In this document: one piece after another, positions 16,482 to 38,652 of the stretch
Position numbering within the stretch: position 1 is the first letter of the stretch
How the letters are laid out: each line of letters opens with the position of its first letter
Virus record (IMG/VR): IMGVR_UViG_3300047557_002951
Location: 1 to 64,000 of that record
Reading direction: 5' to 3' (one strand)
From: a virus
DNA length: 64,000 nt
Notes under the pieces: model-generated
Database searches by the model: none
What the model saw: the letters and a program-made list of their open reading frames with translations, nothing else
Told to the model about the DNA's origin: nothing
Translations under genes and position numbers: made by a program

Positions 16482-17176
16482 TTTTTTCTACAGGATGCAA
16501 TAAAATAACCATTGTGCCAATCACTTTGTTCATAAACAAGTTCTGGAGTTGAACCATCTATTGTAGTTCTAATTTCAAGAGAATATAGGATTTCTAAATT
16601 TAAATCAACAAATGCCCTTGTTGTTCCCGTTCTCACTTGATTCCAATTCCAATCATCACAGATAAAGATAAATTCATCTTCTAATGCTGGTTGCGCATAA
16701 ACAACTCCATCATACTGGTCTTGTTCTTCGTGTGGACCATCAAAGAAGTAGACATTATATTTACCAATATTATTATAGTCTACTGAACGAAAATCATTTT
16801 CTTGGAATTGATAAGATGCTTGTGGACTATCTTTTTTGATTTCCTCAGTATTTTTAAAGAACAAAGACTTTACATTCCCCATTGGATTAAACTGGTCCCA
16901 GTTGTCTACAAAGTAAGCGTTTACTTTGTTATTATACAGAGCAGAACAAGCAGTAGAACCAGTCCAGGTTCCAACCTCAAGATATCTTACATCATCCACT
17001 TGAGAAATCAACTGGTTAATAAAGTGCTTATACTTTTTACCAGACATAGATTCCATGGTCATCAACCAATTTGGAAGATAATTTAATTCATTTGCAGCGA
17101 CATAAGATTTGAATATTTCATTAGAATATTTTGATGGTCCAATATCAGTAATCGTAATTTTAGTTTTCATTATCAA
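16478..17176 (-). CDS. class I SAM methyltransferase, Methyltransf_24-like
   Basis: YLEVGTWTGST, FFDGPH, ICDDWNW. Confidence 0.85.
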   Translation of the reverse strand: MIMKTKITITDIGPSKYSNEIFKSYVAANELNYLPNWLMTMESMSGKKYKHFINQLISQVDDVRYLEVGTWTGSTACSALYNNKVNAYFVDNWDQFNPMGNVKSLFFKNTEEIKKDSPQASYQFQENDFRSVDYNNIGKYNVYFFDGPHEEQDQYDGVVYAQPALEDEFIFICDDWNWNQVRTGTTRAFVDLNLEILYSLEIRTTIDGSTPELVYEQSDWHNGYFIASCRKK

Positions 17177-20139
17177 TCAAAGAAGAACAAGTGGAATAAT
17201 CTTGAGTTAGTTATATGAGTTCCAAAGTACTCATTTGCAGAATGAATACACTTTGCATCAAAGAGTACAAGGCGATTGAAGACATTACCTGCAGTATCTA
17301 CAAGTTCAAATTTTGTTCTATCATAGAAACCAGTTTCTCCAAATACATCAACATCTCCAAAGTCATTTTCATTTCTTAGACCAGTTCTCTTATGAGCAAA
17401 GAGTGAGGTTCCACAAGAAACAGGAGCATCGGGAGTAAGATAAACCATTCCAGCAAGAGTTTGTCCATCGCAATGATAAACCAAATCATCCTGTGCAGTA
17501 CAGTACTGAAATCTACCACACATTCCGTGAGTTTCAGTCCAGTTTGTAATCTTCTTACCAATAATCTTTTCAAATGCTTCCTTGGTTCCAGGAACAATAA
17601 ACTGATTTTTAGAACGATTGCCCTTGTAGTAATCTAAGTTTTCTTCAAACTCTTGATTGAGTGCAAACTCACGAACTGCATAAGGGTCAGCATAGAAATC
17701 ATCAACTATCCAGAATCTTGGTTTTTCATTTGCATTCACGCCAAGTTCTTCAATAGAATTTGCTGGACTTGCAAATTGCTTTGGTTCTTGTGAAGTGAGT
17801 TCAAGTGCAAGATTATGAAGTTGCTCTGGTACAGGACCACTATCATAATATAGATTAGTATCAATAAGGAAATAATAATCTGGAAAAGGAAGTTTTCTTT
17901 CTGGTTGCATCAATCTTGTGGTCTGCTCAAGCATCTTAGTATACTGTCCAAGTTGATGATAGATGCGAGCAAGGCAAACAATATGCTCATTTCTTATGGG
18001 ACAGAAACTTTCTGCATCTTTATAATAGAAGATTGCTTTTTCTGTATCTCCAAGAAACTTATAGCATTCTCCAATAGAAAATGTTGCATAATAGCACATT
18101 TCATTAATGCCTCTTTGAAGATTGCCTCTCTGGTGAAGAACATCAATATACTGCTCAAAATAAAAGATTGCGCGTCTTGCAAATTCCTTTGAGTGATGTT
18201 CTGCAAGTGGATAAAAGTCTCCACCGAAACAATCCATATAACTCTTACCAGTATACCAGAAGTGGTACATATCCGTGAGCATCGTATCTTCACGAATCAA
18301 TTTTTCTTCTAGTTTTAGAGCATCACTTATGTACTTAGTTCTTACTGTATAACTTTCTCCATCTGGAGTTCCAATCATCCTTAAACCTCTTGGGAGGTCA
18401 GTCACTTGGAAGTTTTCTCCAGTCACTCCATCATTCAGATAGATACACTCATGCGCCACATCATGCTTAAATTTCCAAGGTAGTTTTGCATTCCAAATCC
18501 AAGCACGATAATACATGCATCCTGGACTTTGGGCAGTAACATGAAAACTTTGGATATTTGTATCATAAAAATAAGACCAATCAAAGTTTTCATCAACTTC
18601 TAGATATTCATCGCAATCCATTTTCATGATCCAATCACAACCATGATCATTGCGAAGTGTAGTTTGGAGAAGGTGATCACGGTTCCAACCAAATCCTACC
18701 CAACCTTCTTCCACTTCATAAATGAATCCTGGAATGTTCTTGTCTGCAAAAAATTCACGAACAATATCTGGAGTTCCATCAGTTGAACCATTATCTTGGA
18801 ACACATAAAAATCAATATGTCTCCAAACAGACTCAAGCATTCGGCGCATACCTTTTGCTTCGTTCTTAAACATAGAAATCATACAAATGTTTGTACGAAT
18901 TTCTTGTCCAGTCTTATGAGCACGGAGGAAGTTATAGTATCCTAGATATTGATCTAATTTTTTAACAGAACCTTGTTTTGCTGCTTCTTCTGCATAAATT
19001 CCGTCTGCTTCATAGATATGTTCAAAGCGAAGATTCTTTGCGACACTCCAACGAACCATATACTGTGAAGTGTCAATGGTTGCAATTTTTGGAGTATCTG
19101 TTGGTTCTGTTCTTGGTTCTTCATTTGCCCAAACCTGACCCCAAGTAATTACGGCATCCTGAGAATTTAAATGAGATTGAATTGTATTCCACCAGTTTGG
19201 GTGAATAACATTATCGTCGTCTAGAATATAAATCCAATCATTATCACTTGGATTGAGATTATTTTTAATGTATTCTAGACCAATATTGCGGTTTGGATTA
19301 CCCCAAAGTCCAGTTTCATTGGATTTGATAACCGTTGCATTTGGGATATTATGCTCATTTTTTACTGTCTTATCAAATACAACAACCCATTCACATTCTT
19401 GTGGGACAGTCTTTGAAATAAACTCTAGGTTAAAAGGTCTCCGAGAAGGAGTTACAATAAAGATTTTTGATTGGCCACTTCGTTGAACTTTTACTTCATT
19501 TCTTTTCAATACTAAAAGTTTATCATTATCCCAACCAGGAGAATATTTATTTTCATGTTCTGTAGTAACAAATGCAATTTCGCTGAAATATTTTTCAAAA
19601 TCTTTTAATTCTTGTTTATAATCTTCTTCATCTCTATTTCTAAAAATATCTTCAATTACAAGAATAGCACCTGGATTTAAGTAATCTATACTATTTTTTA
19701 TGAATCTTATTTGATCTTCGAAAATATGTGTCGAATCTTCAATAATGATATCATATTTTACATTTGATTTTTTGAGAACATTAGCAATAGAACTTTCGTC
19801 CTGAATATTCATGCTCTCATAAACAACATCTGTTAAATTTTGACTTCTTGCATTTTGAATGTATTCTTCATTATATTCGTATCCATAAATTTTTGCTAAT
19901 GGAAAATATCTTCTCCAGATATTAATGGAATCATTTTTTTCAATACCAATCTCAGCAATATTAATTACTTCATCTCTTAAATGAGAAAATAACTGATCAT
20001 AGACTGGTGTGTATGGGTGTCTATGTCCGCTTGTAGTATTCTGGGAATATGGACATTTATCACTATTAAATGCCATTCCAATTTTGCAAAGATTTGATAC
20101 TTTTCCAGTAGTATCAAGAGTAATAGATTCAAATGTCAT
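17173..20139 (-). CDS. multidomain protein: methyltransferase + GT-A (GT43-like) + GT2 + TPR + 2OG-Fe(II) oxygenase-like
   Basis: AEIGI..DIIIEDSTH..LNPGAILVIED; IVTPS..NRNIGL..YILDDDN; FKNE..DNGSTDGT..MDCDE; TPR-like helices; VDDFY..YHCD..GTSL..FNRLVLF..HSA..R. Confidence 0.8.
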   Translation of the reverse strand: MTFESITLDTTGKVSNLCKIGMAFNSDKCPYSQNTTSGHRHPYTPVYDQLFSHLRDEVINIAEIGIEKNDSINIWRRYFPLAKIYGYEYNEEYIQNARSQNLTDVVYESMNIQDESSIANVLKKSNVKYDIIIEDSTHIFEDQIRFIKNSIDYLNPGAILVIEDIFRNRDEEDYKQELKDFEKYFSEIAFVTTEHENKYSPGWDNDKLLVLKRNEVKVQRSGQSKIFIVTPSRRPFNLEFISKTVPQECEWVVVFDKTVKNEHNIPNATVIKSNETGLWGNPNRNIGLEYIKNNLNPSDNDWIYILDDDNVIHPNWWNTIQSHLNSQDAVITWGQVWANEEPRTEPTDTPKIATIDTSQYMVRWSVAKNLRFEHIYEADGIYAEEAAKQGSVKKLDQYLGYYNFLRAHKTGQEIRTNICMISMFKNEAKGMRRMLESVWRHIDFYVFQDNGSTDGTPDIVREFFADKNIPGFIYEVEEGWVGFGWNRDHLLQTTLRNDHGCDWIMKMDCDEYLEVDENFDWSYFYDTNIQSFHVTAQSPGCMYYRAWIWNAKLPWKFKHDVAHECIYLNDGVTGENFQVTDLPRGLRMIGTPDGESYTVRTKYISDALKLEEKLIREDTMLTDMYHFWYTGKSYMDCFGGDFYPLAEHHSKEFARRAIFYFEQYIDVLHQRGNLQRGINEMCYYATFSIGECYKFLGDTEKAIFYYKDAESFCPIRNEHIVCLARIYHQLGQYTKMLEQTTRLMQPERKLPFPDYYFLIDTNLYYDSGPVPEQLHNLALELTSQEPKQFASPANSIEELGVNANEKPRFWIVDDFYADPYAVREFALNQEFEENLDYYKGNRSKNQFIVPGTKEAFEKIIGKKITNWTETHGMCGRFQYCTAQDDLVYHCDGQTLAGMVYLTPDAPVSCGTSLFAHKRTGLRNENDFGDVDVFGETGFYDRTKFELVDTAGNVFNRLVLFDAKCIHSANEYFGTHITNSRLFHLFFFD

Positions 20140-20846
20140 AGTTTCACTCTCTCTTCAATCAGTCTTAAAATTTCAGGATTGTTTTCTTGTTCTTTTGTGG
20201 GAGCATAAAGTGCTCTGAGTCTTGTGTCAGTTTTTTCTGGGGGATCCGTAAGATAATAAACTGCCAAACTTCTTCTATATGTATTCTCTGGGCAAGTGAT
20301 TGGTTCTGGAAACCCATGCCATGAGTTTTGAGTTGTGTCAAATAATACTGCACGGTTAAAAATATTATCTACCGTGACTATTTTTTTATTAGGTTTTTTT
20401 GTTTGTGAGTTGTGAGACCATAATTCTAAATTACCTCCCCACTTACTGTCCCAGTCTTCTGTTAGATATAAAATAAGATTTAATTTTCTTTGAAGTTTAA
20501 GTTTTGGGTGAAGTGAATAATCTAAATGTATATTTAATTTCCCCCCTGTTCCCATCATATGTAGACCACCGCCATGGAGACCAATATCTGGATATAAATT
20601 TTTTATTCCAGTAATTTTTTTAAGATACTCAATATAGATTGGCGAATTTAAATAAGAAAATAATCTATAAGTTTCTATCCCAAAATAATACCAATTATTG
20701 CAAGTTCTTTTGACTTCTAATGGATTATTATACTCAAACCAAACTGGAGAGTGATAATCTGGAAATTCTTTGGAAATTATTTTTGCTTTTTCTATATCCA
20801 AAAAATTATCAAGGATATGATGATAAAAAGGAAAATTTGACTCCAT
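20136..20846 (-). CDS. 2OG-Fe(II) oxygenase, prolyl-hydroxylase-like family
   Basis: LNIHLD (HxD), LNLILYL, WGGNLELW, FNRAVLF, SWHG, RRSLAVYY. Confidence 0.88.
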   Translation of the reverse strand: MESNFPFYHHILDNFLDIEKAKIISKEFPDYHSPVWFEYNNPLEVKRTCNNWYYFGIETYRLFSYLNSPIYIEYLKKITGIKNLYPDIGLHGGGLHMMGTGGKLNIHLDYSLHPKLKLQRKLNLILYLTEDWDSKWGGNLELWSHNSQTKKPNKKIVTVDNIFNRAVLFDTTQNSWHGFPEPITCPENTYRRSLAVYYLTDPPEKTDTRLRALYAPTKEQENNPEILRLIEERVKL

Positions 20847-20960: not shown

Positions 20961-21833
20961 TTATAAATTTAGGTTATCTTTTAAATTTTTGATTTCTTCC
21001 TTGAGAATATGTATCTTTTTATCTTGTTCTTTAATTGCTTCAATTAAGACAGCAACAATGTTTCCATAAGAAACTGTTTTTAATCCTTTAGCATTTGTAG
21101 TTACAACTTCTGGTAATACTTTTTCAATTTCTTGTGCAATTACACCGATTGATGACTTATTATGTTTATCAATCCAATCATAACGAACTCCTTTAAGTTG
21201 ATTTATAAGATCTAATGCATTTTCAATTGATCTTATATTTTCTTTTTGTGTTTGGTCAGAGAGTGATGTAAATACAGTAGCATAAAGAGTTCCAGAACTT
21301 GGTTGAAATTCTAATTTGTTATCTGCTGCATATGTTGCCGTAGGAGTTCCACTTGCAACATCAGTGAATGTCGGAAAGAAAATATTAGATGATGATATTT
21401 CTGCAGTAATTGTTGAAGAGCCGCCACCCGAAGCACCTTGAACTCCTTGTGCACCTTGAACTCCTTGTGCACCTTGCGTTCCGGCACCTTGTGCCCCCTG
21501 AGCACCTTGAGCACCTTGAACACCTTGTGCACCTTGAACACCTTGTGCACCTTGAACACCTTGTGCACCTTGAACACCTTGTGCACCTTGAACACCTTGT
21601 GCACCTTGAACACCTTGTGCACCTTGGACTCCTTGTGCACCTTGAACACCTTGTGCACCTTGAACACCTTGTGCACCTTGGACTCCTTGAGCTCCTTGGA
21701 CTCCCTGGGCACCTTGAGCACCTTGGCGACCTTGGGCTCCTTGTGCACCTTGAGCACCAATAGCACCTTGGACACCTTGAGGTCCTGTAGATCCTACAAA
21801 ATTTCCGCCAATAATAGAACTTAAGGTTGCCAT
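20961..21833 (-). CDS. short Gly-X-Gln collagen-like protein with peptidase S74 chaperone
   Basis: About 40 GXQ triplets after a very short N-terminus; LSDQTQK, GVIAQE, LIEAIKE. Confidence 0.88.
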
Positions 21834-21835
21834 AT

Positions 21836-24800
21836 TTAGTCTTTTATCTTTTTACTTAACTCTTTAATCGCTTCAATTAAAATTGCAGTAATACCGTTGT
21901 AGTTCACGGTTTTTTCTCCATTTACTTCTGAAACAAGTTCTGGGAATATTTTTTCCAAATCTTGAGCAATAATTCCCACGGATGGTTTATCATTACTCTT
22001 CCACTTAAACGAAACTCCTTTAAGTTGCTGTACTTTATTTATAGAATTATCAATAACTTTAATATCTTTTTTTAGTTTTAAATCTGATGTTGAATTAAAA
22101 TCTGTTGCCGTAAGAGTTCCTGTGCTAGGGACAAAACTAAATGCAGTTGCAGTAGTTCTTATTTTTGCTGTATTTGAACCTGTTCCCGCAACAAATACTG
22201 GATAATGTGTAGATGCTGTCGTATCATTTGTTGCATTTATGTTAATTGCGGCATTTCCTGCGGCGGATGAAGTAAATATTTCCCATGTTGTTCCATCATA
22301 TATGACATCTACTGATATATTTCCAATATCTAAGACTAAATCTTCCGCAAGACCCTCGATAGTTGAAAGATTTCTTCCTACTGTTAAGTTTGTTGTAGTC
22401 CAATTAGCACCATCTGCAATAGTGACACTGTGTCCTGTTGAAGGACTTGCTGGTAAGGTAATAGTAAATGTACCTCCAGATGTATCCGCAATTAATCTAT
22501 CACCATTAACTGCGGTATAGTTTGCAGTTTTTCTTGACCAAGCATTTATTCCTGTGGCACCTTGAACACCTTGTGCACCTTGAACACCTTGTGCACCTTG
22601 GACTCCTTGAGCTCCTTGGACTCCCTGGGCACCTTGTACTCCTTGAGCACCTTGAGCACCTAATGCACCTTGAACACCTTGTGCACCTTGGACTCCTTGT
22701 GCACCTTGGACTCCTTGTGCACCTTGAACACCTTGTGCACCTTGGACTCCTTGTGCACCTTGTGCACCCTGTGCTCCTCTATCGCCAGTTCTTGAGAATT
22801 GAACTGTTAATGTAGCACCATTTGCAGGTAATGAACCAGAAATATGAGAGACTGTAATTTTATAGTATCCTACTGCAGCAGCAATGGCAGTAACACTCCA
22901 GGTATTTACTACCGTACTTGCTGCTGTTGCTCCAGTAATTGTTAAGTAACCCTTTTGTATATTGGTTGAGTCATCCCAAGTATCATACCAAGTGGTTTGA
23001 ACATTTGAATTAGAATCATTATTATCAATAAAGATTGTATTTACTGAACCTATTGTTGCATTATTATATGCGATAACTCCATTACCTGGATCTGCATCAG
23101 TTGTAGTCGTACTGAATGTATATGGGGTTCCTCCTTTATTTCCATTAGCACCTTGAACGCCTTGAGCACCTTGAACGCCTTGAGCACCTTGAACACCTTG
23201 TGCCCCCTGAACACCTTGTGCTCCTTGTGCACCTTGGGCACCTTGGGCTCCTTGGGCTCCTTGAGCTCCTTGACGACCTTGTGCGCCTTGAGCCCCCACA
23301 GCACCCTGGACTCCTTGGGCACCTTGAACACCTTGAGCTCCTTGGACTCCTTGAGCTCCTTGGACTCCCTGGGCACCTTGTACTCCTTGAGCACCTTGAG
23401 CTCCTTGAACTCCTTGTGCTCCTTGTGCGCCTTGAGCACCTTGTGCGCCTTGAGCACCTTGTGCGCCTTGAGCCCCCACAGCACCCTGGACTCCTTGGGC
23501 ACCTTGAACACCTTGAGCTCCTTGGACTCCTTGTGCACCTTGAACACCTTGAGCTCCTTGGACTCCTTGTGCACCTTGAACACCTTGTAACGCTGCAGTA
23601 GAAATTGCCTCCCATTTGATTCCAGTTCCAGTAGAAATGAGAACTGATGTAGCAGCACCTACATTATTAAAAGTATCATAGAGTGCTCCTCTTAATCTTA
23701 AGTTTCCGCTAATGTCAACTTTTTGTGTTGGATTTGTTGTTCCAAATCCAGTATTTCCACCAAAAGGTGCTATCTCTACAGTTCCATCGGCATCTACATC
23801 AATGCTGGGAATACCAGAAACATCATTAACACTAAAAATAGAACCACTAGTAAGATTATTTGTAATACTGAATAACTGACCAGCAGAACCTTCCCAAGAA
23901 AGAGTTCCATTATTTAAAATATCATAGTGAACAATATCAATGACAGTTCCAATACCAACAGTTCCTACACCAGATACTGGACTTGTGTAGGTGAGACTTG
24001 TGGAACCAGTTGGATTATTAGATGCATCTTTATATACAATTTGATTTGCAGAACCTGCTACTGGTCCTGTAGCACCCTGGACTCCTTGAGCACCTTGAAC
24101 ACCTTGTGCACCTTGAACTCCTTGAGCTCCTTGAACACCTTGTGCGCCTTGGGCACCCTGTGCTCCTTGTGCACCTTGACGACCTTGTGCTCCTTGAGCA
24201 CCCACAGAACCTTGAACTCCTTGTGCGCCCTGGACTCCTTGTGCGCCCTGGACTCCTTGAGAACCAACAGCACCTTGAATTCCTTGAGCACCCTGTACTC
24301 CTTGTGCACCTTGAATGCCTTGTGCGCCTTGGACTCCCTGGGCACCTTGAACTCCTTGAGCACCCTGGACCCCTTGTGCACCTTGGACCCCTTGAGCTCC
24401 TTGAACACCTTGAGCACCTTGAACTCCTTGAGCACCTTGAACTCCTTGAGCACCTTGAACTCCTTGAGCACCTTGAACTCCTTGAGCACCAACTGCCCCC
24501 TGAACTCCTTGTGCACCTTGTACTCCTTGTGCACCTTGTACTCCTTGTGCTCCTTGAGCGCCAGTATCTCCTTTATCACCAGTTCTTGCGAAAGTGATTA
24601 TAATATCTTCTAAATTGGTAAATGATGTTGCGCTACCAGAAACATAAGAACAATTGACATCGAAATATCCAGTTTGTTCTGTTATAGATGAAATAGTAAA
24701 TAGAGCAAAATCTGCTGCATTAAGACGATTGGATATTCTAAAGTGACCTTTAATGGTGGAAGTAGAATCGTCAATTGTTCTTAAGAAGGTTTGAATATCT

Positions 24801-27800
24801 GTAGTTCCATCATTCTGATCATCAATATACATTAAAGTTGCTAATGAAATATTAGCATTATTAAATCTAAGTTTTCCTACTCCTGGGTCCCCTGCTGTGG
24901 TTGTAGTGTCAAAAGTATAATCAAATGTAGCACCACCAAAGTTTCCATCATTACCTTGAGCGCCTTGTACTCCTTGAGCACCCTGGACACCTTGTGCCCC
25001 CTGAACACCTTGAGCACCTTGAGCACCTTGAACACCTTGAGCACCTTGAGCGCCTTGTGCACCCTGAGCACCCACAGAACCTTGAACACCTTGAGCACCT
25101 TGGACTCCTTGTGCTCCTTGGACACCCTGTGCTCCTTGGACACCCTGTGCTCCTTGTGCACCTTGAGCACCCTGGACTCCTTGAGGTCCAGTGGCACCTT
25201 GTACTCCTTGTGCACCTTGAATTCCTTGAGCACCTTGAACTCCTTGAGGTCCTGTAGCACCCTGGACACCTTGAGCGCCTTGAATTCCTTGTGCACCCTG
25301 GACACCTTGAGCACCTTGAACTCCTTGAGCACCCTGGACTCCTTGTGCTCCTTGAACACCTTGAGCACCTTGAGCACCTTGGGCACCTTGGGCTCCTTGG
25401 GCTCCTTGAGCACCTTGGGCACCTATATTGCCAGTTCTTGTGAATTGAACGGATAATAAAGCACTATTAGTTGGCAAAATTCCAGATACATATGCTACTG
25501 GAATTTTATAATACCCTGCAGCAACAGTAACTACTCCAGTTACGCTAAAAACATTGACCGTTGTTCCAGAAGAAGTGCCAGAAGTTATATAAAGATATCC
25601 TCTTTGAGTAGCATTAGTGGAATCATCCCAAGTATCGTACCAAGTAGTTTGTGTATTCCCTAATTGATCAAGGTTATCAATAAAAATATTAGTTACAGAT
25701 GCTATTGTAGCATTATTATATTGAAGAACACCATTCCCAGGATCAGCATCAGTAACTGTGGTACTAAAGGTATAAGGAACTCCACCTCTGTTACCTAGTG
25801 CTCCTTGAACCCCTTGTGCACCCTGGACACCTTGAGCACCTTGAACTCCTTGAGCACCTTGAACTCCTTGAGCACCTTGAACTCCTTGTGCTCCTTGAAC
25901 ACCTTGGGCACCTTGAGCTCCTTGAACTCCTTGAGCACCTTGGGCACCTTGAGCTCCTTGAACTCCTTGAGCACCCTGGACCCCTTGTGCACCTTGAACA
26001 CCTTGAGCCCCCTGGACCCCTTGTGCACCCTGGACACCTTGAGCTCCCTGTGCACCTTGAGCTCCCTGTGCACCTTGAGCACCTTGAGCACCTTGAGCAC
26101 CAACAGCACCCTGGACTCCCTGGGAACCTTGAACACCTTGAGCACCTTGAACTCCTTGTGCACCTTGAACTCCTTGAGCACCCTGGACACCTTGTGCTCC
26201 TTGTACTCCTTGAGCACCTTGAGCGCCTACAGCACCTTGAACTCCTTGTGCTCCTTGTGCACCTTGGACTCCTTGAGCACCTTGGACTCCTTGAGCACCC
26301 TGAACACCTTGAGCTCCTTGGACTCCTTGAGCACCCTGTGCTCCTTGTGCTCCTTGAGCGCCTTGTGCTCCTTGTCTACCTTGTGCGCCTTGAGCACCAA
26401 CAGCACCCTGGACTCCCTGGGCACCTTGTGCACCTTGGACACCTTGAGCACCCTGAGGTCCTTGGAGAGCAGCCTGTTGAATATTAGCCCAAGAAACACC
26501 AACACCAGTGGAAATGAGAACTGAAGAGGCAGTGCCTACTTGTCCATAAAAATCTTTTAAAGAACTATCAAGTTCTAAAGTTCCTCCAAAAGTGGAAACT
26601 CCAGTTACATTAATAGTTGGAACAATGAGATTTGTATCGGTAACTTGCATACCACCAGCAGCAAGTCTTACTCCTAGTGGAATTTGAGTAGAACCAATAC
26701 CAACACCATAATTAAATATCCAAGCATCAGTATTCAATCCAGCAAAAGATCCAGACTTAAACCACATTAACTGCTTGTAAGTATCTGGTGTTATTTCTCC
26801 TGCAGTAGATAACTTAACTAATGGACTACCCTCAGTAGAAGCAATCGCAATACCTCCAGTATTTGCTGTGGTATCTGTGGAAACATCATTACCTAGAGCA
26901 TTGGTAACAATGCCAACTACTAGGTCCTTATCCTTGATTCTTAGTTCGTTAGATATAATATACGATGATGTACCACCGATTGTAATGTTTCCACCGACAT
27001 AAAGGTTAGAACCATCAAAAGTTAAATTAACAGATCCAGTGGGATTATTGGATCCATCTTTATAAACAATTTGATTTGCAGATCCTGCTACTGGTCCTGT
27101 AGCACCCTGAACTCCTTGAGCACCTTGAACACCTTGAGCTCCTTGGACTCCCTGTGCACCTTGTGCTCCTTGTGCTCCTTGTGCACCTTGACGACCTTGT
27201 GCTCCTTGAGCACCCACAGAACCTTGAACTCCTTGTGCGCCCTGGACTCCTTGTGCGCCCTGGACTCCTTGAGCACCTTGAACTCCTTGAGCACCTTGAA
27301 CTCCTTGAGCACCTTGAACACCTTGAGCTCCTTGAGCACCCTGGACCCCTTGTGCACCTTGGACTCCTTGTGCACCTTGGACTCCTTGTGCACCTTGAAC
27401 TCCTTGAGCACCCTGGACCCCTTGTGCACCTTGAACTCCTTGAGCACCCTGGACCCCTTGTGCACCTTGGACCCCTTGAGCTCCTTGAACACCTTGAGCA
27501 CCTTGAACTCCTTGAGCACCTTGAACTCCTTGAGCACCTTGAACTCCTTGAGCACCAACTGCCCCCTGAACTCCTTGTGCACCTTGAACTCCTTGTGCTC
27601 CTTGAACTCCTTGTGCTCCTTGAGCGCCAACTGCTCCCTGAACTCCTTGCGCACCCTGAGTACCTTGTGCTCCAACATTACCAGTTCTCGTAAATTGAAC
27701 GGATAATAAAGCACTATTAGTTGGTAAAATTCCAGATACATATGCTACTGGAATTTTATAGTAAGTGGTTGCATTAACTACTGCGCCTGTAACACTAAAA

Positions 27801-30193
27801 ACATTAACTGTTGTTCCAGAAGAAGTGCCAGAAGTTATATAAAGATATCCTCTTTGAGTAGTATTAGTAGAATCATCCCAAGTATCATACCAAGTAGTTT
27901 GATTATTACTTAATTGGTCTAAATTATCGATGAAGATATTAGTTACAGAAGCAATAGTAGCATTATTATATTGAAGAACACCATTGCCAGGGTCGGTATC
28001 AGTAACAGTTGTACTGAAAGTGTAAGGAACTCCACCTCTGTTACCTAGAGCACCTTGTGCACCTTGAGCACCCTGGACACCTTGTGCCCCCTGAACACCT
28101 TGAGCTCCTTGTGCACCTTGAGCACCTTGGACACCTTGAGCACCTTGAGCACCTTGTGCCCCCTGAACACCTTGTGCTCCTTGTGCACCTTGTGCACCTT
28201 GAGCACCTTGGACACCTTGTGCCCCCTGAACACCTTGTGCTCCTTGTGCACCTTGAGCACCTTGAACACCTTGAGCACCTTGAACACCTTGAGCACCTTG
28301 AATACCTTGTGCACCTTGAATACCTTGTGCACCTTGTGCACCTTGAACTCCTTGAGCACCTTGAACACCTTGTGCCCCCTGAACACCTTGTGCTCCTTGT
28401 GCACCTTGAGCACCTTGGACACCTTGAGCACCTTGAACGCCTTGAGATCCTACAGCGCCTTGAATACCTTGTGCACCTTGAATGCCTTGTGCTCCTTGAG
28501 CGCCAACTGCCCCCTGAACTCCTTGAGCACCTTGAGCACCTTGTCTACCTTGTGCTCCTTGAGCACCAACAGCACCCTGGACTCCCTGGGAACCTTGAAC
28601 TCCTTGAGCACCTTGAACCCCTTGAGCACCCTGGACACCCTGAGCACCTTGTACTCCTTGAGCACCTTGTACTCCTTGAGCTCCTTGTACTCCTTGAGCA
28701 CCTTGTACTCCTTGAGCTCCTTGTACTCCTTGAGCTCCTTGGGCACCTACATCTCCCTTATCACCAGTTCTTGCGAAAGTGATTATAATATCTTCTAAAT
28801 TGGTAAATGATGTTGCGCTACCAGAAACATAAGCACAATTTACATCAAAGTATCCAGTTTGTTCTGTAATAGATGAAATCGTAAAAAGAGCAAAATCTGA
28901 TGCATCAAACTTATTTGAAACTCTAAAGTGACCCTTAATTGTTGATGTTGAATCATCAATTGTCCTTAAGAAAGACTGAATATCAGTTGTTCCATCATTC
29001 TGATCATCAATATACATCACAGTTGCAATTGTGATGTTGGCATTATTAAATCTAAGTTTTCCTACTCCTGGGTCCCCTGCTGTGGTTGTAGCATCAAAGG
29101 TATAGTCAAAAGTAGCACCACCAAAGTTTCCATCATTACCTTGAGCGCCTTGTACTCCTTGTGCACCTTGGACTCCTTGAGCACCTTGAACACCTTGAGC
29201 ACCTTGAGCACCTTGAGCACCTTGAGCACCTTGAGCACCTTGAGCGCCTTGTGCACCTTGACGACCTTGTGCTCCCTGAGCACCCACAGAACCTTGAACA
29301 CCTTGAGCACCTTGAACACCTTGTGCACCTTGTACTCCTTGAGCACCCTGGACTCCTTGAGCACCTTGAACGCCTTGAGGTCCTACAGCACCCTGAATAC
29401 CTTGAGCACCCTGAATACCTTGTGCTCCTTGAGCGCCAACTGCTCCCTGAACTCCTTGTGCACCTTGTACTCCTTGTGCTCCTTGAACACCTTGTGCACC
29501 TTGTGCACCTTGAGCACCAACAGCACCTTGAGCACCAACAGCACCTTGGACACCTTGAGCACCTTGAACACCTTGAGAACCTTGAACTCCTTGTGCTCCC
29601 TGCGCACCTTGAGGGCCAACAGCACCTTGAATACCTTGAGTTCCTTGAACTCCTTGGGCACCCTGGACACCTTGTGCTCCTTGGGCACCTTGACGACCTT
29701 GAGCGCCTTGAGCACCTACAGCACCTTGGACTCCTTGGGCACCTTGAGCACCTTGAACACCTTGTGCACCTTGAGGACCAGATTGTTGAGTGAAAGTAAT
29801 ATTCGCAGTAGTTCCATCTGCAGTTGCAGTTACGCCAATACCAATAAAATTAATTGAAGTAAATGTCGTACCAACACTAACACCTTCTTCTTCAACTTCA
29901 ATTCCAGTTAAAGATGTAGCAATAATTTCTTGTATTGTTGAAAGACTGTCAATACTCGTCCAAGTTATTCCACTACCTACAGTAACTAAAATCTGCCCAG
30001 AAGAACCTGAACTATTATTTACATCATATACTGCACCCCTTAATCTCACATCACCAGCAACATCTAAATCTCTGGTTGCGTTGGTAGTTCCAATACCAAC
30101 ATTTCCAACGACCTGCAATACAGTATCGTTCTCTGTATAAGAACTGATACCAATTCTAAGATTTTTTTGACGATTGCTGATATATTTTGCCAT
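21836..30193 (-). CDS. giant collagen-like fibre protein (2785 aa) with repeated globular domains and S74 chaperone
   Basis: Eight (GAQ/GVQ)n tracts separated by seven globular domains; C-terminal [21 protein letters not shown]. Confidence 0.92.
22555..29780. repeat. eight tracts of 9-bp-period coding tandem repeat plus duplicated domains of about 380 bp
   Basis: ccttgagca/ccttgaact-type units; domain A about 28750-29140 and 24565-24955; domain B about 27675-28050, 25425-25797 and a divergent copy at 22775-23148. Confidence 0.95.
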
Positions 30194-30207: not shown

Positions 30208-30537
30208 TTAGTTAAGTGTTTCTAGAATACTTGCGATAAATTTTAAATTTGTTCCGTTGCTTCCTGATAATACCAACTTATCACCACTTTCTAATACCAA
30301 TTTTCCAGCAAGAAGATTTGCAGTGTCGTTAGATGAAATTGGAAATTGTTTTAACATTTCGGTATCAGTAACACTTCTGCGGTGAATTAGTGTTACATCA
30401 GCAGAATTTGCTCCAATATTTGCTACTTGAGCCAAAAGAACAACTCCTGTATATCCAACTGGTGCTGTATAAATCACAGTAGGAGATGTATTAACAACTG
30501 CTGTAACTGTTTGAAATACATTAAGTGCGAGTGCCAT
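30208..30537 (-). CDS. small virion structural protein; paralogue of 52556..52906
   Basis: ALNVFQTV..IYTAPVG..VLLAQVAN..KLVLESGD..SILETLN. Confidence 0.8.
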   Translation of the reverse strand: MALALNVFQTVTAVVNTSPTVIYTAPVGYTGVVLLAQVANIGANSADVTLIHRRSVTDTEMLKQFPISSNDTANLLAGKLVLESGDKLVLSGSNGTNLKFIASILETLN

Positions 30538-30540
30538 TCT

Positions 30541-32403
30541 TTAATCTCCTCCTAGTGCTAGAATGAATGGTGTCATCGTAGAGAACAAACTCTTAGAATA
30601 GAATGTTCCACTAATTGTTCCTGTTTGTTGGTTGATCACAACACCGTCACCAATTCGAAAGTTTCCTGCCTGATCTGTTGATGTAAACACCACCAGCCCA
30701 CCATTACGAGCATCAGTTTCATTTTCTTGAATTGGAACTCCCCCATTTTGTGGAAGAGCACCTGCAATATTTGTACCAGAACCAATATATTCAAGTGAAT
30801 GTCCTGATGCTAAAACGCGACTTTGCTTAAAAAATGGAACTGTTGTACCAACTCCAACAGCATAAGGAACATTATCTGTAATAGTTATGGTACAAATTCC
30901 AGCAGAAATTGGAGTTGAACTGTCAATTACATAATAAGTTGGAATTAAGTTTGCTATTCCGGTTGCAGTATTGGTACCAACATCAGGTGAAGCAAAGGTT
31001 ACTGTTGGTGTAGATGTATAACCTCTACCATTAGATACCATTTCAACTTTGGTTACAACACCATCTTTGACTTCACCTACAGCAGTTGCAGGAATTCCCC
31101 AAGGTTCGCTTGGGTCCTCAAAAGTAATATCAACATTCTGCGTATATCCAGTTCCACCAGAACTTACTGTTACTTTACCAACTGTATAATATAAAGAATC
31201 AAAGTAAATTACCTGACCATCAAAAGGACGAACGACATTAATCTTTGCAGTTCCGCCCGAATTATATGTGTGCGGTAGTGTAGAAGTACCAACATAAACC
31301 TCAAAAGAAGTTGATGATGGAACACTTTGAACTTCAAAAATATATCCTTTATTTCCTGATGGGTAAGTTACAATTCCGGGACCCGATGGACAAGTAAATC
31401 CAAGTCCAACAATTGAAACTCCCATCCCAACATTAAAGTTGTGATTGGTACTTGTAGTAATAGTTGTAAGACCTGTGGTGTTATCATAAAGTGCGTTTGT
31501 TACATTCAATGTTGGAACATTTAAGTCTAATACAAACTCAAATGCATTTGCTGCCGCCGATGCTGTAATAATTCCAGTGTATTTGTGTGGTCCAATACCA
31601 TCAGCAACTAATCCATAGTTACCAAATGATGAGTTGGAGTTTGTAAGATCGCAAGCAGCACCACTACCACAGTAGATGGCAGTATCATTACAAATCGTAA
31701 AGATAGAAACTAACTGCGCATAACCTTCATTTATGATAGAAACACCAATACCACCTTGATTGTATTGAGTATAACTATCGACAACCATTGATTTTAATGG
31801 ACCAATTGCCTTCAGACCATCAATTCTCATTCCAATACTATTTGGAATAAAGTTTGTGCAGTTTTGAATATAAGGAGATTGGTCAAAATATCCTATTTCG
31901 TCTGGGTTAAATGCAAATATTGCTTTTCCGTTGTTCAGAGTGCCAGTATAAGACATCTCTGCGACATAATTTCCATTAGAAACATAGAACAAGTCTTGGT
32001 CTGCGTTCTGTGGAGATACTGATACTTCTCTTAAACTATCTCCAACAATTGATACTTGACTTGGAATTGTGAGAGGGTTATTTTCTAGATAAGATCCAGC
32101 ACTAACTTTAATAATTGTTCCTGTTGTTGCTGATGTGAGTGCTGCTCCGATTGTTCTTTTTGCGTCTCCAAGTTTTTTTCCTGTGTTGGAGTCGCTTCCG
32201 TCTTGTGTAACATAAAGAATATTAGTAACTGTTGCTCCAGCACCAAGTCTTACAACATCGGTACCAATTCCTGCTCTTTCTCTGCGGGCAAATAATTCGG
32301 CATCATAAGTATTTAAAGCTAGTTCCCCCAAAGGTAGTTGTTCTGCCGTTGGTCTTTTACCGGGAACCGAAGATCTTTTTATCCTGATATTTGGATCAGC
32401 CAT
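30541..32403 (-). CDS. tail fibre/spike-like protein with beta-helix region; paralogue of 52908..56282
   Basis: N-terminal IRIKRSSVPGKRP..GELALNTYD; YVTQDGSDSNTG; PYIQNCTNF; DSYTQYNQGG; STDQAGNFRIG. Confidence 0.8.
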   Translation of the reverse strand: MADPNIRIKRSSVPGKRPTAEQLPLGELALNTYDAELFARRERAGIGTDVVRLGAGATVTNILYVTQDGSDSNTGKKLGDAKRTIGAALTSATTGTIIKVSAGSYLENNPLTIPSQVSIVGDSLREVSVSPQNADQDLFYVSNGNYVAEMSYTGTLNNGKAIFAFNPDEIGYFDQSPYIQNCTNFIPNSIGMRIDGLKAIGPLKSMVVDSYTQYNQGGIGVSIINEGYAQLVSIFTICNDTAIYCGSGAACDLTNSNSSFGNYGLVADGIGPHKYTGIITASAAANAFEFVLDLNVPTLNVTNALYDNTTGLTTITTSTNHNFNVGMGVSIVGLGFTCPSGPGIVTYPSGNKGYIFEVQSVPSSTSFEVYVGTSTLPHTYNSGGTAKINVVRPFDGQVIYFDSLYYTVGKVTVSSGGTGYTQNVDITFEDPSEPWGIPATAVGEVKDGVVTKVEMVSNGRGYTSTPTVTFASPDVGTNTATGIANLIPTYYVIDSSTPISAGICTITITDNVPYAVGVGTTVPFFKQSRVLASGHSLEYIGSGTNIAGALPQNGGVPIQENETDARNGGLVVFTSTDQAGNFRIGDGVVINQQTGTISGTFYSKSLFSTMTPFILALGGD

Positions 32404-32693: not shown

Positions 32694-35342
32694 TTAAAAA
32701 GTTCCAGCGTCAACAGTGATATTCTCAAGGAATCTTTCAGTTCCAGTGCAAGAAATAACCTGGGAAGTTCCAGCACAGTCAGTTACCCAAAGTTGTCCAA
32801 TTTCAATGGGAGCAAAGTTTGCCACAGTGAATGATGGTAGATTTGTTTGAGAGTCTGATCCATCAGATCCAGGATCAACATCAGTTGTAAATTGGAATCT
32901 CTTAGTTGCCCCACTTGCCTCCCAGACAAGACCTGCTTTCTTAGCACCACTATCTCCATAGTTAAATAGAACTGCAAGATCCCAAGTTGTAGTAGTTGGT
33001 TGAGTTCCTGAGGTAATTCTACCAAGTTCAATTGTACGATCTTCAATTGCTAAAGTAGTTGTATCAATTTGAGTCGTACTTCCCTGAACATAGAGATTAC
33101 CTTGAACCGTTAAGTCATCTGCAAATGTGGCATCATTACCAGTAAGAGTAAGTACAGTTGAGCCAGTATTTTGCGATTGGATAATATTCGTTTTAATTGT
33201 TGGAGCACTTAGCGAAGTTCCAACAATTACGGCATCAGGAAGTCCAACTGTAATTGTCTGACCAGAAGCTGATGTATTGACTTCATTTGCAGTACCAGCA
33301 ATTGTGAATGTCTGAGATGTGTTGACTGAACCAGTCCCGGTATCTCCAGCAATACTTAGTGTTAAGTCAACATTTCCAATCTGCGATCCAACATAATTAA
33401 TAATAGCAGATGAAGTTGGTACAGAAGATGTTGAAGTTCCTGTAGATACTGAACTAGAGAATTGAGTAATTCCTACGCCAGTTCCAACCTTAAATGTATT
33501 TGTATTTGGATTGTAAACTAATTCGGAATCAACACCCAATGCTTTTGAGTTTCCAGAACCATCGGAAAAAACAAGATTATAATTCTGATTAGATGCTACA
33601 CCAGCAACATCAACATTCTGTGCTCTGGTTGCAGTTGTTGCAGTACCTGTTAATGTACCTTGAACTTCTACATTACCCGTAAAGAGTGCGTTTTGAGTCG
33701 TAAAGGTATTTGTACCTGGATTATAGTAAATACCATCATCAGTATAAACAGTTTCTGCAGAAGCAGTTCCATTATGTGAATTAACAAAAGTAATATAATG
33801 AGTTGATGCTGCATCTGCTGCAGTTACAGTATCAACAGTAGTTGCTCTAGTTGCAGTAGAAATAGTACCAGTAAGTGAACCAGTAATATTAGTTGCATTT
33901 AAATTAGTAAAGTTTGCACTCGTAGCATTAATAGTATCATCAGTCATTGTGATACTAGAACCAACGGCAAGACGAACACCGTCAGCCATTGTTGTGGTTC
34001 CAATCGCAACACCATAGTTAAAAGCAAATGCATCTGTTGCAAATCCAAGAGTTCCACTTCGGAACCACATCATTTGCTTATAGGTATCTGGAAGTGTATT
34101 GATACCAGATGCTTGGAATGATACTAATGGAGTTCCTTCTTCAGATGCAATCGCAACACCTGCGTGATTTGCGGTTGTATCACTTGGAGTTACTGAAGTG
34201 GTATATCCAAGAACAATATCTTTGTTCTCAATAAAAACATCTTCACCACGAAGAGTAATTGTTGTCCCACCAATGAAGACATTTCCCGATACATCAATAT
34301 CACCTAAAACATCAAGTCTGCCTGGAATTTCAACAACTCCAATCGCAGAATTGAGAGTTAATTTTCCAGTTGAAGTAGTAACGGTGTTTGCATCGCCAAT
34401 ACCTATATTGATATTATTTGCATCAACTCCACTTTCAAAGGTTCCAATTCCAGAGAAGTGTGCATTTCTCCAATTTAAAGTTGAAATACCAACATCATAA
34501 GTGGCATCAATTGTTGGAATTACATTGGAGTTAATCGAACCATCAATATTAATAACATCTCCACCATTACCAAGATTAATCTGTCCACCATAAAAGGTTG
34601 CAGTTCCAATGAAGTATGATTGTCCACCAACAGAAAGTCCAGCACCAATGGTTACATTCTTTTCGACACCTAAACCGCCGTCAATTTGAACAGCACCTGT
34701 ATTTACATTACCTAAAGTATTGTCTGTTGTATTTGAAAATGTAGTGATACCTGAGAAATCCGCACCACCACCACCACTAAATGATACGGTTCCAGTTACA
34801 TTTAAATCTCCACCTACATTTAAATCTGAACCAAAATATGAAGTGCCAGAAACTCCTAATCCACCTGCGATTGTTACTGCGCCAGTTGTGGAACTTGTAG
34901 AAACTGTGGTTGTAGTAAATGCAACATTATTGGTAAAGGTTCCAATTCCAATAACAATTTCTTCAACACCTAAAGTGTTAACTTGGTCTACCCAAGATAG
35001 TTGTCCATCTCCATTTGTTGATAATACTTTTCCACTATAACCAATCGCGGTTGCTGGGAGTGTATAGGTAAATGTTGCACCAAGACTTACTGGTGCTCTT
35101 AAATTAATTGATTGTGATCCGTTATCTGAAACAAGTTTTAATTTAAGTGATTTGACGCCATTTTCTTCTCTTTCCCAATAACGATGGGAACCGAAGAATT
35201 TGTTGCTTACTACTGAGGTATCAATACCAATAAAAAAGTCAAAGTTGTTTAATGAAATCGCTGGTTCACCTGGACGGAGAGCAGGAACTGTTCCTGCTAT
35301 CCCTGCATTACCTCTCTTAAACTGAAGTACTGGTGCAGGCAT
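32694..35342 (-). CDS. tail fibre-like structural protein
   Basis: N-terminal LQFKRG..LRPGEPA; G/T/S-rich repeats; C-terminal VDAGTF. Confidence 0.78.
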   Translation of the reverse strand: MPAPVLQFKRGNAGIAGTVPALRPGEPAISLNNFDFFIGIDTSVVSNKFFGSHRYWEREENGVKSLKLKLVSDNGSQSINLRAPVSLGATFTYTLPATAIGYSGKVLSTNGDGQLSWVDQVNTLGVEEIVIGIGTFTNNVAFTTTTVSTSSTTGAVTIAGGLGVSGTSYFGSDLNVGGDLNVTGTVSFSGGGGADFSGITTFSNTTDNTLGNVNTGAVQIDGGLGVEKNVTIGAGLSVGGQSYFIGTATFYGGQINLGNGGDVINIDGSINSNVIPTIDATYDVGISTLNWRNAHFSGIGTFESGVDANNINIGIGDANTVTTSTGKLTLNSAIGVVEIPGRLDVLGDIDVSGNVFIGGTTITLRGEDVFIENKDIVLGYTTSVTPSDTTANHAGVAIASEEGTPLVSFQASGINTLPDTYKQMMWFRSGTLGFATDAFAFNYGVAIGTTTMADGVRLAVGSSITMTDDTINATSANFTNLNATNITGSLTGTISTATRATTVDTVTAADAASTHYITFVNSHNGTASAETVYTDDGIYYNPGTNTFTTQNALFTGNVEVQGTLTGTATTATRAQNVDVAGVASNQNYNLVFSDGSGNSKALGVDSELVYNPNTNTFKVGTGVGITQFSSSVSTGTSTSSVPTSSAIINYVGSQIGNVDLTLSIAGDTGTGSVNTSQTFTIAGTANEVNTSASGQTITVGLPDAVIVGTSLSAPTIKTNIIQSQNTGSTVLTLTGNDATFADDLTVQGNLYVQGSTTQIDTTTLAIEDRTIELGRITSGTQPTTTTWDLAVLFNYGDSGAKKAGLVWEASGATKRFQFTTDVDPGSDGSDSQTNLPSFTVANFAPIEIGQLWVTDCAGTSQVISCTGTERFLENITVDAGTF

Positions 35343-36064: not shown

Positions 36065-36072
36065 TATTTATA
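36065..36072 (-). promoter_or_regulatory. T4-type late promoter TATAAATA
   Basis: Exact consensus about 20 nt upstream of the ATG at 36044. Confidence 0.7.
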
Positions 36073-37965: not shown

Positions 37966-38652
37966 TTACTTGTTTGGTGCTATAAAGGTTTTATTGGGAC
38001 CCCAATTATTAGTCTTGTTAATATAAGTTTGATAGAAGTCATAAGAACCTCTGATAAAATTCAAAGAAGAAACTGATAATGCTATAATAACCAATTTTTG
38101 AATCACTTCAATTTGTTTTTGAATTTGATTGTCCAGTTTGATTCTATCTAAGATACTTCTTTGATGAAGTTTTGGAAGTTCAACTTCAGTTTCAGGTTTT
38201 CTTGTATAAGTCCAAGTGCTTGTTTCAAAGTCATATTCAGCAAGATTGGCGTGGTCATAATTTCTCATAATTGGAGAGCAAATATAAGGAATGTCCTTAT
38301 CAATATGTCCAATACTCAAATCAATCAAAATAGGAATTTCAGTCTCAGTTACACAAACTACATGAGTGGATAACATTTTATCCTTGGTATAATTATTTTG
38401 ATTAAAACCAGGATATCCCATCAAAAATAGTCCTGGAGGGTCTTTCAAAGTCACCATAAGACTACACTCAACGATTTGAGATTTAATACCCTGTTTGTGT
38501 AAGAGCTTGTGAATAATATCACTCATACTCACACAATAACCTGAACCTGCTTCAAGCATTCCAGAATTTTTCAAGTTGTCTATGAGACCCTTAATAGTCT
38601 TAAAGTATTCAGTTTCAGTTGCTGGATGATTTTTCATAAGTATGTGCTCCAA
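37966..38652 (-). CDS. putative transglutaminase/papain-fold protein with C-terminal hydrophobic helix
   Basis: GYCVSMS..GIKSQIV..THVVCV..ILIDLS gives Cys-His-Asp order; LVIIALSVSSLNFI. Confidence 0.55.
   Translation of the reverse strand: MEHILMKNHPATETEYFKTIKGLIDNLKNSGMLEAGSGYCVSMSDIIHKLLHKQGIKSQIVECSLMVTLKDPPGLFLMGYPGFNQNNYTKDKMLSTHVVCVTETEIPILIDLSIGHIDKDIPYICSPIMRNYDHANLAEYDFETSTWTYTRKPETEVELPKLHQRSILDRIKLDNQIQKQIEVIQKLVIIALSVSSLNFIRGSYDFYQTYINKTNNWGPNKTFIAPNK

Follow-up and report, generated by a model that had tools for sequence, protein, structure and literature searches.

Collagen-like tail fibres of phages and prophages were the subject of 'Bacteriophage collagen' (Smith et al. 1998, as cited in PMC1079782), and the collagen-like side-tail proteins EPclA and EPclB of phages in Escherichia coli O157 form trimeric triple helices with trimerising end domains (PMC3368898). 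The collagen-like phage fibres characterised so far are short proteins that depend on proline or charge pairs. Two other modules of phage fibres are relevant to the protein described here. Peptidase_S74 (S74) domains chaperone the folding of a trimer and then cleave themselves off, using the catalytic motif SDxxxK (PMC10769870). The XD1 domain of CBA120 TSP4 and of T4 gp9 and gp10 is a trimeric, in-line module, with the chain entering on one face and leaving on the opposite one; its fold is common to glycan-binding domains of StcE and CpaA, and it acts as a spacer that cannot bind trimeric partners on its axis (PMC8825819). In the literature that we searched, no paper describes a Gly-X-Gln, GAQ or glutamine-rich collagen, and reviews name glutamine merely as one among several enriched residues. 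Here we report the analysis of a giant fibre gene of this composition in positions 1 to 64,000 of the IMG/VR virus record IMGVR_UViG_3300047557_002951 (the whole 64,000-nucleotide stretch is called the window below).

The open reading frame (ORF) at 21836-30193 on the minus strand, where all features of the gene lie, has a stop-free translation of 2,785 amino acids (aa; about 270 kDa, isoelectric point 4.5). It encodes a beaded collagen-like fibre protein in which eight collagen tracts alternate with globular domains in the order N-A-B-C-B-A-C'-B'-tip. The best explanation, to which we give a probability of about 75%, is that a T4-like freshwater cyanophage uses the protein as a homotrimeric, segmented, collagen-like fibre of its virion, most likely attached to the baseplate or tail and serving host capture.

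Collagen tracts were defined as runs of at least five G-x-x triplets. The scan returned exactly eight Gly-X-Y tracts: tract 1 (29114-29779, aa 139-360, 74 triplets), tract 2, the longest (28028-28765, aa 477-722, 82 triplets), tract 3 (27089-27682, aa 838-1035, 66 triplets), tract 4 (25778-26461, aa 1245-1472, 76 triplets), tract 5 (24929-25432, aa 1588-1755, 56 triplets), tract 6 (24059-24580, aa 1872-2045, 58 triplets), tract 7 (23126-23584, aa 2204-2356, 51 triplets) and tract 8 (22544-22786, aa 2470-2550, 27 triplets). Together they comprise 490 triplets, that is 1,470 residues (4.41 kb) or 53% of the fibre protein, and the glycine periodicity runs without any break inside each of them (27-82 triplets). 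Glutamine occupies the Y position in 437 of the 490 triplets (89%), while the X position is taken by alanine (280) or valine (153) in 433; the commonest triplets, GAQ (253) and GVQ (153), jointly make up 83% of the total. Proline is limited to eight residues (0.5%), all at X, in eight GPQ and GPV triplets. Aspartate, lysine and arginine sum to 20 residues (1.4%), only three of them lysine, and glutamine and threonine account for 29.7% and 0.6% of tract residues, respectively. The tracts thus lack the known collagen-stabilising composition (imino acids, charge pairs, threonine for glycosylation), a feature that is typical of the family rather than defining it. The Pfam Collagen family (PF01391) matches 23 stretches with 683.9 bits against a gathering score of 27.2, and this score is strongly composition-driven; a frame open over 8.4 kb at 36% G+C, together with the Collagen score of 684 bits, rules out a chance origin.

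These values bear out the initial annotation, which had recognised a collagen-like viral fibre with glutamine at almost every Y position, alanine or valine at X and next to no proline or charge pairs; its estimate of about 470 triplets (about 4.2 kb) in eight tracts was slightly low. The roughly 400 nm of collagen that it had calculated for a fully helical protein becomes about 420-426 nm (1,470 residues at 0.286-0.29 nm each), if all tracts are helical. Its comparison with the unbroken helix of type I collagen is a loose one, as the longest unbroken tract, of 82 triplets, would span about 70 nm and the helix would be segmented, not continuous. The list of features was incomplete: besides the collagen and the beads, the protein has an N-terminal module, an XD1-type domain and an S74 chaperone, the last being the likeliest trimerisation and folding device.

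A landmark of eight conserved triplets, beginning with GVQ-G(A/S) and ending with (A/V)Q, occurs in seven copies within the tracts, at aa 166, 310, 549, 1000, 1272, 2004 and 2306 (about 23273-29698 in the window, minus strand), and near copies are found in two further collagen-like genes of the window, at 20961-21833 and 49142-51655. It is nearly the sole source of charge within the tracts and often stands 9 triplets from a tract start or 11-16 triplets from a tract end. It may serve as a register mark or a binding site, or be the footprint of recombination.

The C-terminal tip consists of three parts. The first (22259-22543, aa 2551-2645) is a beta domain of the type of T4 gp9/gp10 XD1, modelled by AlphaFold2 (AF2) with a predicted local distance difference test (pLDDT) score above 90. 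It superposes on residues 82-179 of CBA120 TSP4 with a VIA Z of 15.0 (root-mean-square deviation 1.5 A, 93 of 95 residues aligned, 29% identity), and the next, unrelated folds fall below a VIA Z of 4. Foldseek also matched this domain to TSP4 (E 9e-8) and T4 gp9 (E 6e-4), as well as to T4 gp10. The second part is a pre-chaperone beta-strand segment (22088-22258, aa 2646-2702) with a low-confidence monomer model; it is probably intertwined in the trimer and would form the distal tip after cleavage. The third part is the Peptidase_S74 intramolecular chaperone (PF13884; 21839-22087, aa 2703-2785), which matches the Pfam family over aa 2703-2754 of 2785 with an E-value of 1e-14 (55 bits against a cut-off of 22; 59 bits for the isolated C-terminus) and carries the catalytic motif SDxxxK as S2703-D-L-K-L-K2708. 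The XD1 part, the beta segment and the S74 domain occur as a cassette, for which at least 499 homologues were recovered, the majority of them likewise ending in S74; among the matches listed, all three were conserved together in 48 of 120 homologues. We also considered whether the C-terminal domain is a gp10-like docking platform or a branch point. This candidate was rejected, as the match is to XD1, a spacer that does not bind trimers on its axis (PMC8825819).

The globular domains between the tracts are of two kinds. Five are beads: A1 (28763-29119, aa 359-477), B1 (27680-28030, aa 722-838), B2 (25430-25780, aa 1472-1588), A2 (24578-24934, aa 1754-1872) and B3 or B' (22784-23128, aa 2356-2470). 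A1 and A2 share 91% aa and 88.5% nucleotide (nt) identity, B1 and B2 share 92% and 86%, respectively, and B3 is 66% identical to both B1 and B2. A and B belong to one family, since they are 34-37% identical to each other with E-values of 1e-18 to 1e-25. The other two domains, C (26462-27088, aa 1036-1244) and C' (23585-24058, aa 2046-2203), are 36% identical (E 3e-26). Segment alignments therefore confirm the order A-B-C-B-A-C'-B' and the kinship of A and B, both of which had been read from the letters, and the pattern YTF..T..DPG.G...NNA..ID...DDST..G..F.RTG proposed for the beads agrees with the invariant columns of the bead alignment.

No Pfam family matches the A/B bead up to an E-value of 1, apart from DUF5077 at E 0.008, which is below the cut-off of that family. 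A sequence profile search of the PDB gave nothing meaningful, and Foldseek returned no match at E 1e-3 or better. The highest VIA Z in a VIA-align wide search was 6.0, on generic, unrelated small beta domains. Of the known folds considered for the bead, namely C1q/TNF-like heads, carbohydrate-binding modules and adenovirus or reovirus fibre heads, none gained a significant match in Pfam, PDB or Foldseek, and the bead was assigned to none of them. The family itself is large: with a profile built from the five copies, 6,436 representative proteins were retrieved at an E-value of 1e-3 or lower, and 3,952 at 1e-10 or lower, among 1.84 billion cluster representatives, and each of the 150 best profile matches carries two to eight copies. 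In the tail protein of Pelagibacter phage HTVC010P the beads stand in tandem without collagen, and in Actinomycetia phage DSL-LC01 they are set in Gly-Pro-Thr collagen.

The AF2 model of the bead, built on a 113-sequence alignment, is an all-beta domain with a pLDDT of 95.8 (bead B1). The trimer prediction that the initial annotation had asked for was run with three copies of B1, each with six collagen triplets per side, and with three controls. The flanked B1 trimer reached an ipSAE of 0.65 (runs 0.65, 0.77 and 0.59) against 0.01 for the best of the three controls, with at least 90% contact agreement between runs and a partner pLDDT of at least 85. Of 30 proteins solved as pairs of one chain, 20 attain the mark applied to this score; of 23 solved as single chains, 1 does. 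The predicted contacts link all three chains along both collagen flanks, and between neighbouring beads they set residues 56-71 against 74-97 and 115-119. The model supports the beads as predicted three-fold, in-line knots. Of the functions first suggested for the beads, that of trimerisation clamps fits this result; we found nothing that points to branch points, nor to a role of the fibre in flotation.

The flank contacts bear on the question of whether the Gly-X-Gln tracts are canonical triple helices at all. They might instead link the trimeric beads as flexible or disordered chains, or form some other polyproline-II-type assembly between them, which would make the protein an entropic tether rather than a rod. 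The near absence of proline and of charge pairs is compatible with such linkers, as are the composition-driven Pfam matches, and we found no experiment on Gly-Ala/Val-Gln repeats in the literature searched. Nevertheless, we judge this reading quite improbable. Glycine periodicity is strict in runs of up to 82 unbroken triplets, the 16 codon versions of GAQ argue for selection on exact Gly-X-Gln periodicity, trimerising modules flank every tract on both ends, and the flanks are predicted to contact one another in all three chains. Furthermore, alanine at X and glutamine at Y are reportedly among the more favourable non-imino residues on the Persikov/Brodsky host-guest scales, so Gly-Ala-Gln would be a sensible proline-free design.

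The core of domain C (aa about 1083-1215) also occurs outside collagen. In tblastn searches it matches non-collagen fibre proteins of cyanophages with 52-61% identity (S-SKS1, DSL-LC03 and S-SRM01 gp333), and this distribution shows module exchange between collagen and beta-helical fibres. The same core is 46% identical to aa 356-487 of an 882-aa non-collagen fibre protein encoded nearby (32694-35342, minus strand) and 52% identical to S-SRM01 gp333 (IMG/VR locus L001, 7609-12231). Domain C ends, directly before a collagen tract, in the same G..vLiStG.G..W pre-collagen motif as the N-terminus, and the last 54 aa of C' are 46% identical to aa 30-83 of the N-terminal module. The N-terminal module thus recurs at the ends of C and C', and the chain therefore looks like a series of three fibre units with a pre-collagen module at the start of each.

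An unusual order such as A-B-C-B-A-C'-B' could in principle be chimeric, and genes of this kind trouble assemblers: the contigs of two related loci, L004 and L011, end inside them. The tract lengths or the domain order might then be partly an artefact of assembling a repeat-rich gene, which we hold to be very improbable indeed. The longest exact repeat inside the gene is 131 nt; no 150-mer of the gene occurs a second time in the genome, and of its 8,259 100-mers only 72 do. The frame is uninterrupted for 8.4 kb, and GAQ appears in 16 codon versions, GVQ in 14. The duplicated beads have diverged to 86-88% DNA identity, with 24 synonymous and 11 non-synonymous codon differences between A1 and A2, and 31 and 9, respectively, between B1 and B2. 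Heavy synonymous variation and the mostly synonymous divergence of the duplicated beads fit old repeats under protein-level selection; a recent slippage array or a collapsed assembly does not fit this pattern.

A single contig of 159,556 bp (35.8% G+C) makes up the genome. The DNA beside the fibre gene is closest to Synechococcus phage S-SRM01 (Kyanoviridae) and to T4-like phages of Prochlorococcus and Synechococcus, and the source virus, judged from these similarities, is a T4-like freshwater cyanophage with S-SRM01 as its closest isolate. Neighbouring genes match tail-fibre and baseplate-wedge PHROGs. Directly upstream of the fibre gene lies the pair p620 and p109 (30208-32403, minus strand), in which p620 (30541-32403) matches the PHROG tail fibre/baseplate wedge and p109 occupies 30208-30537; the pair corresponds to S-SRM01 gp329 and gp330 and is 80-88% identical in the IMG/VR loci L005, L006/L007 and L078. 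In these three loci, the gene that follows the pair has an N-terminus matching that of the giant fibre with 45-68% identity over 80-95 aa, including the sequence ...GIGTTNAT, and S-SRM01 gp331 is 56% identical to the N-terminal module over 54 aa. The N-terminal domain (29780-30193, aa 1-138) is conserved over its first 50-90 aa, which presumably attach the fibre to the virion.

Downstream of this shared start, the genes occupying the slot are unrelated to the giant fibre and very different in length. Those in L078 (1,088 aa), L005 (1,465 aa) and L006/L007 (1,479 aa) have shorter, interrupted collagen and another tip; those in L026 (158 aa) and S-SRM01 (gp331, 219 aa) have no collagen. The giant fibre is the most expanded version among the slot genes compared. 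A word-indexed search with the N-terminal 138 aa against proteins of 1,531-4,874 aa returned partial matches only, the best with 50% identity over 36% of the query, and thus no full-length orthologue with a comparable architecture. Receptor-binding fibres of phages are typically recognised by the combination of a constant N-terminal attachment module with distal parts that are freely exchanged.

This pattern also bears on where the fibre would sit. It might be carried elsewhere than on the tail or baseplate, as a head, neck or whisker-type decoration that senses the environment, coats the particle against aggregation or acts as a long-range tether. A length of about 0.45 µm would be several times that of a typical long tail fibre, the N-terminal homologues carry names assigned by similarity only, several other fibre genes in the genome could fill the classical fibre roles, and XD1 modules have been described as spacers, not receptor binders (PMC8825819). 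The gene, however, sits among baseplate- and tail-fibre-like genes, right after p620/p109, its constant N-terminus and swapped distal parts follow the classical pattern of receptor-binding proteins, and S74 cassettes typically belong to tail fibres and spikes. We therefore consider a position on the head or neck unlikely.

Several points weigh against a baseplate- or tail-attached collagen fibre as the explanation of this gene. The fibre protein is known here from its gene and from predictions alone. Of the devices that stabilise non-hydroxylated collagens, the tracts lack the two studied best (proline 0.5%, charged residues about 1.4%), and the stability of the helix is assumed. Part of the bead-trimer score may be memory, because collagen triple helices are well represented among solved structures. 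The searches found no clear structural relative of the bead. The whole-protein PHROG 'tail fibre' scores are largely driven by collagen composition, and the relatives of the N-terminus are named 'baseplate wedge subunit' by similarity only, so that attachment to a head or neck would be compatible with them.

On the preferred explanation, a fibre attached to the baseplate or tail, the protein would assemble from its C-terminus. Three S74 domains would associate and template the folding of the adjacent beta segment and XD1-type domain, and the Gly-X-Gln tracts would then zip into triple helices between successive trimeric nodes. The seven globular nodes (A/B beads, C and C') would act as three-fold, in-line knots that reset the chain register over 1,470 helical residues and cap each helix at no more than 82 triplets (about 70 nm), leaving rope segments of about 25-70 nm; they are probably hinges and perhaps also additional glycan-binding sites. 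The S74 domain would cut itself off at Ser2703, giving a mature fibre of about 2,703 residues, and the N-terminal 50-90 residues would dock it to the particle beside p620/p109. The product would be a flexible beaded line of about 0.45 µm, to which the helix would contribute about 420 nm and the seven nodes and the ends the remainder. Such a fibre would give the particle a larger capture radius in dilute water and would be the first, reversibly, to touch the surface of the host; its distal parts would be exchangeable between phages and set specificity.

To place the giant fibre among its relatives, we surveyed the 79 IMG/VR loci closest to bead A, which hold 94 distinct bead-bearing ORFs; the proportions given here are not those of an unbiased census. 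At least 50 triplets occur in 90 of the 94 ORFs. Glutamine is the commonest Y residue in 61 of them and exceeds 50% of Y in 47, of which 31 have less than 2% proline. The X residue varies by lineage (Thr/Ile, Glu/Phe, Leu or Ala/Val), and glutamine at Y is constant. The longest single tract among the surveyed loci has 229 triplets. Among the large fibres, that of L071 is complete (1,782 aa, 423 triplets), that of L011 has at least 2,365 aa and 560 triplets, its contig ending inside the gene, and that of L004 has at least 2,184 aa. Proline-poor, beaded Gly-X-Gln architecture is thus, as far as these gene sequences indicate, not unique and common in aquatic viral contigs. L011 and L004 come from the same IMG/VR sample (3300020048), and both contigs end inside a Gly-(Thr/Ile)-Gln beaded fibre gene, which shows that such beaded collagen genes break short-read assemblies; each may be one half of a single gene with far more than 2,400 aa.

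Two further collagen-like fibre genes lie in the window. Directly downstream of the giant fibre gene, a 290-aa mini-fibre (20961-21833, minus strand) consists of a 14-aa N-terminus, 35 Gly-X-Gln triplets, a short beta segment and S74 (SDQTQK), and is devoid of a globular attachment domain; one possibility is that it binds the giant fibre. The third collagen fibre (837 aa; 49142-51655, minus strand) has an N-terminus of the same motif family as the giant fibre, a globular insert, Gly-X-Gln tracts that shift to a periodic block rich in GATGTQ, and an S74 end. T4-type late promoter boxes (TATAAATA) occur seven times in the window against 4.9 expected, a count reached by 17 of 100 shuffles and thus not significant as a class. 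As leads only, we record one box at 22036-22043 (minus strand), about 200 nt upstream of the mini-fibre start and within the 3' end of the giant gene, and one at 36065-36072 (minus strand), upstream of the first gene of the fibre operon, which encodes the 882-aa protein.

Beyond the mini-fibre follow two enzyme genes, both on the minus strand: a 236-aa 2-oxoglutarate (2OG)-Fe(II) oxygenase (20136-20846; Pfam PF13640) and a 988-aa protein with Pfam matches in the order methyltransferase, glycosyltransferase (GT), GT2, TPR and DUF6445 (17173-20139). Their position hints that the pair (17173..20846) are candidate fibre-modifying enzymes. In IMG/VR L040/L041 (3917-7089; one sequence recovered from two metagenome samples), homologues of the two enzymes (62% and 53% identity) likewise come after a 1,086-aa Gly-X-Gln S74 fibre. 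The hint is tempered by tracts that are nearly without proline or lysine. Prolyl hydroxylation by the 2OG oxygenase is an unlikely stabiliser of the helix, given only eight tract prolines, at X of GPQ and GPV. A transglutaminase link between the gene at 37966-38652 and the glutamine-rich fibre was likewise rejected, as the gene matches no transglutaminase family (Pfam E up to 1) and shows a weak Peptidase_S66C match, and the tracts have only three lysines. The idea that phage tRNAs serve the demand for glycine, alanine, valine and glutamine was dropped, as none of the four tRNA genes (C1:127841-131017), which are only Pro-TGG, Arg-TCT, Ile-TAT and Leu-CAA, fits it.

Some 1,470 residues of near-pure Gly-Ala/Val-Gln stay in frame and uniform in protein despite heavy synonymous drift, and a similar style is seen in dozens of uncultured aquatic viruses. 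Tentatively, and at somewhat less than even odds, Gly-(Ala/Val)-Gln might be a distinct, proline-independent route to very long triple helices, in which glutamine side chains and hydration stabilise the helix and a previously undescribed trimeric beta bead, present in over 6,400 protein clusters, holds the chains in register, providing aquatic phages with sub-micron beaded fishing lines. The adjacent 2OG oxygenase and the glycosyltransferase fusion may modify such a fibre. If the tracts are true triple helices, a long collagen can be built without imino acids, and the repeat would offer a simple, recombinantly accessible system for work on triple-helix stability and for biomaterials. The fibre would then be among the longest phage appendages, and a new model and scaffold for the folding of imino-free collagen. 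The A/B bead represents a large unannotated domain family, whose predicted in-line trimer would explain how register is kept in very long homotrimeric fibres. For the phage, a cyanophage tether of about 0.45 µm would bear on the finding of scarce hosts in dilute water, and the distal parts swapped at a conserved slot would mark a host-range locus. On the whole, the fibre matters more for collagen biophysics than for phage genomics.

Compared with described systems, the giant fibre shares with EPclA and EPclB the placing of Gly-X-Y tracts between globular, trimerising phage-fibre domains in a modular mosaic (PMC3368898). EPclA has been shown to be a trimer and a true triple helix with a trimerising C-terminal domain (PMC3368898). 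The EPcl proteins differ in having proline in about half of their X positions and numerous charge pairs (GPK, GPQ, GER), in their size of a few hundred residues with one or two tracts, and in using the domains PfN, PfC and PCoil instead of S74, XD1 or the bead (PMC3368898). The Gly-X-Y ORFs of T4-like cyanophages, such as P-SSM2 orf028 (49% Gly-X-Y), come from the same virus group and are likewise candidate tail fibres (PMC1079782). In P-SSM2, however, X and Y are often Pro, Ser or Thr (PMC1079782), in contrast to the 2,785-aa giant fibre with 89% glutamine at Y, alanine or valine at X and seven interspersed domains.

The tip has other parallels. K1F endosialidase, the T5 L-shaped fibre and the Bdellovibrio MAT fibres also end in a C-terminal S74 domain (SDxxxK) after a beta-rich tip and have mosaic distal parts (PMC10769870). 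Their shafts are beta-helical, whereas that of the giant fibre is collagen, and the MAT fibres, unlike the giant fibre, are bacterial surface proteins with signal peptides (PMC10769870). The XD1 domains of T4 gp9/gp10 and CBA120 TSP4 have the same fold and are in-line trimeric modules, which lie near the N-terminal, baseplate-proximal end of those proteins (PMC8825819); in the giant fibre the domain is distal, between the last tract and the chaperone.

The closest relatives of the shaft are the beaded proteins of the IMG/VR loci L004-L082, HTVC010P and DSL-LC01, which carry the same A/B bead with up to 87% identity. The IMG/VR fibres often show the same collagen-bead-collagen layout, with glutamine at Y and less than 2% proline, and some are equally large; they differ in their X residues (Thr/Ile, Glu/Phe, Leu), bead numbers, tips and N-termini. 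The giant fibre has neither the collagen-free tandem beads of HTVC010P nor the Gly-Pro-Thr collagen of DSL-LC01. An S74-chaperoned, collagen-like phage fibre is thus a known kind of protein, and it is the composition, the size, the segmentation by beads and the distal XD1 domain that set the giant fibre apart.

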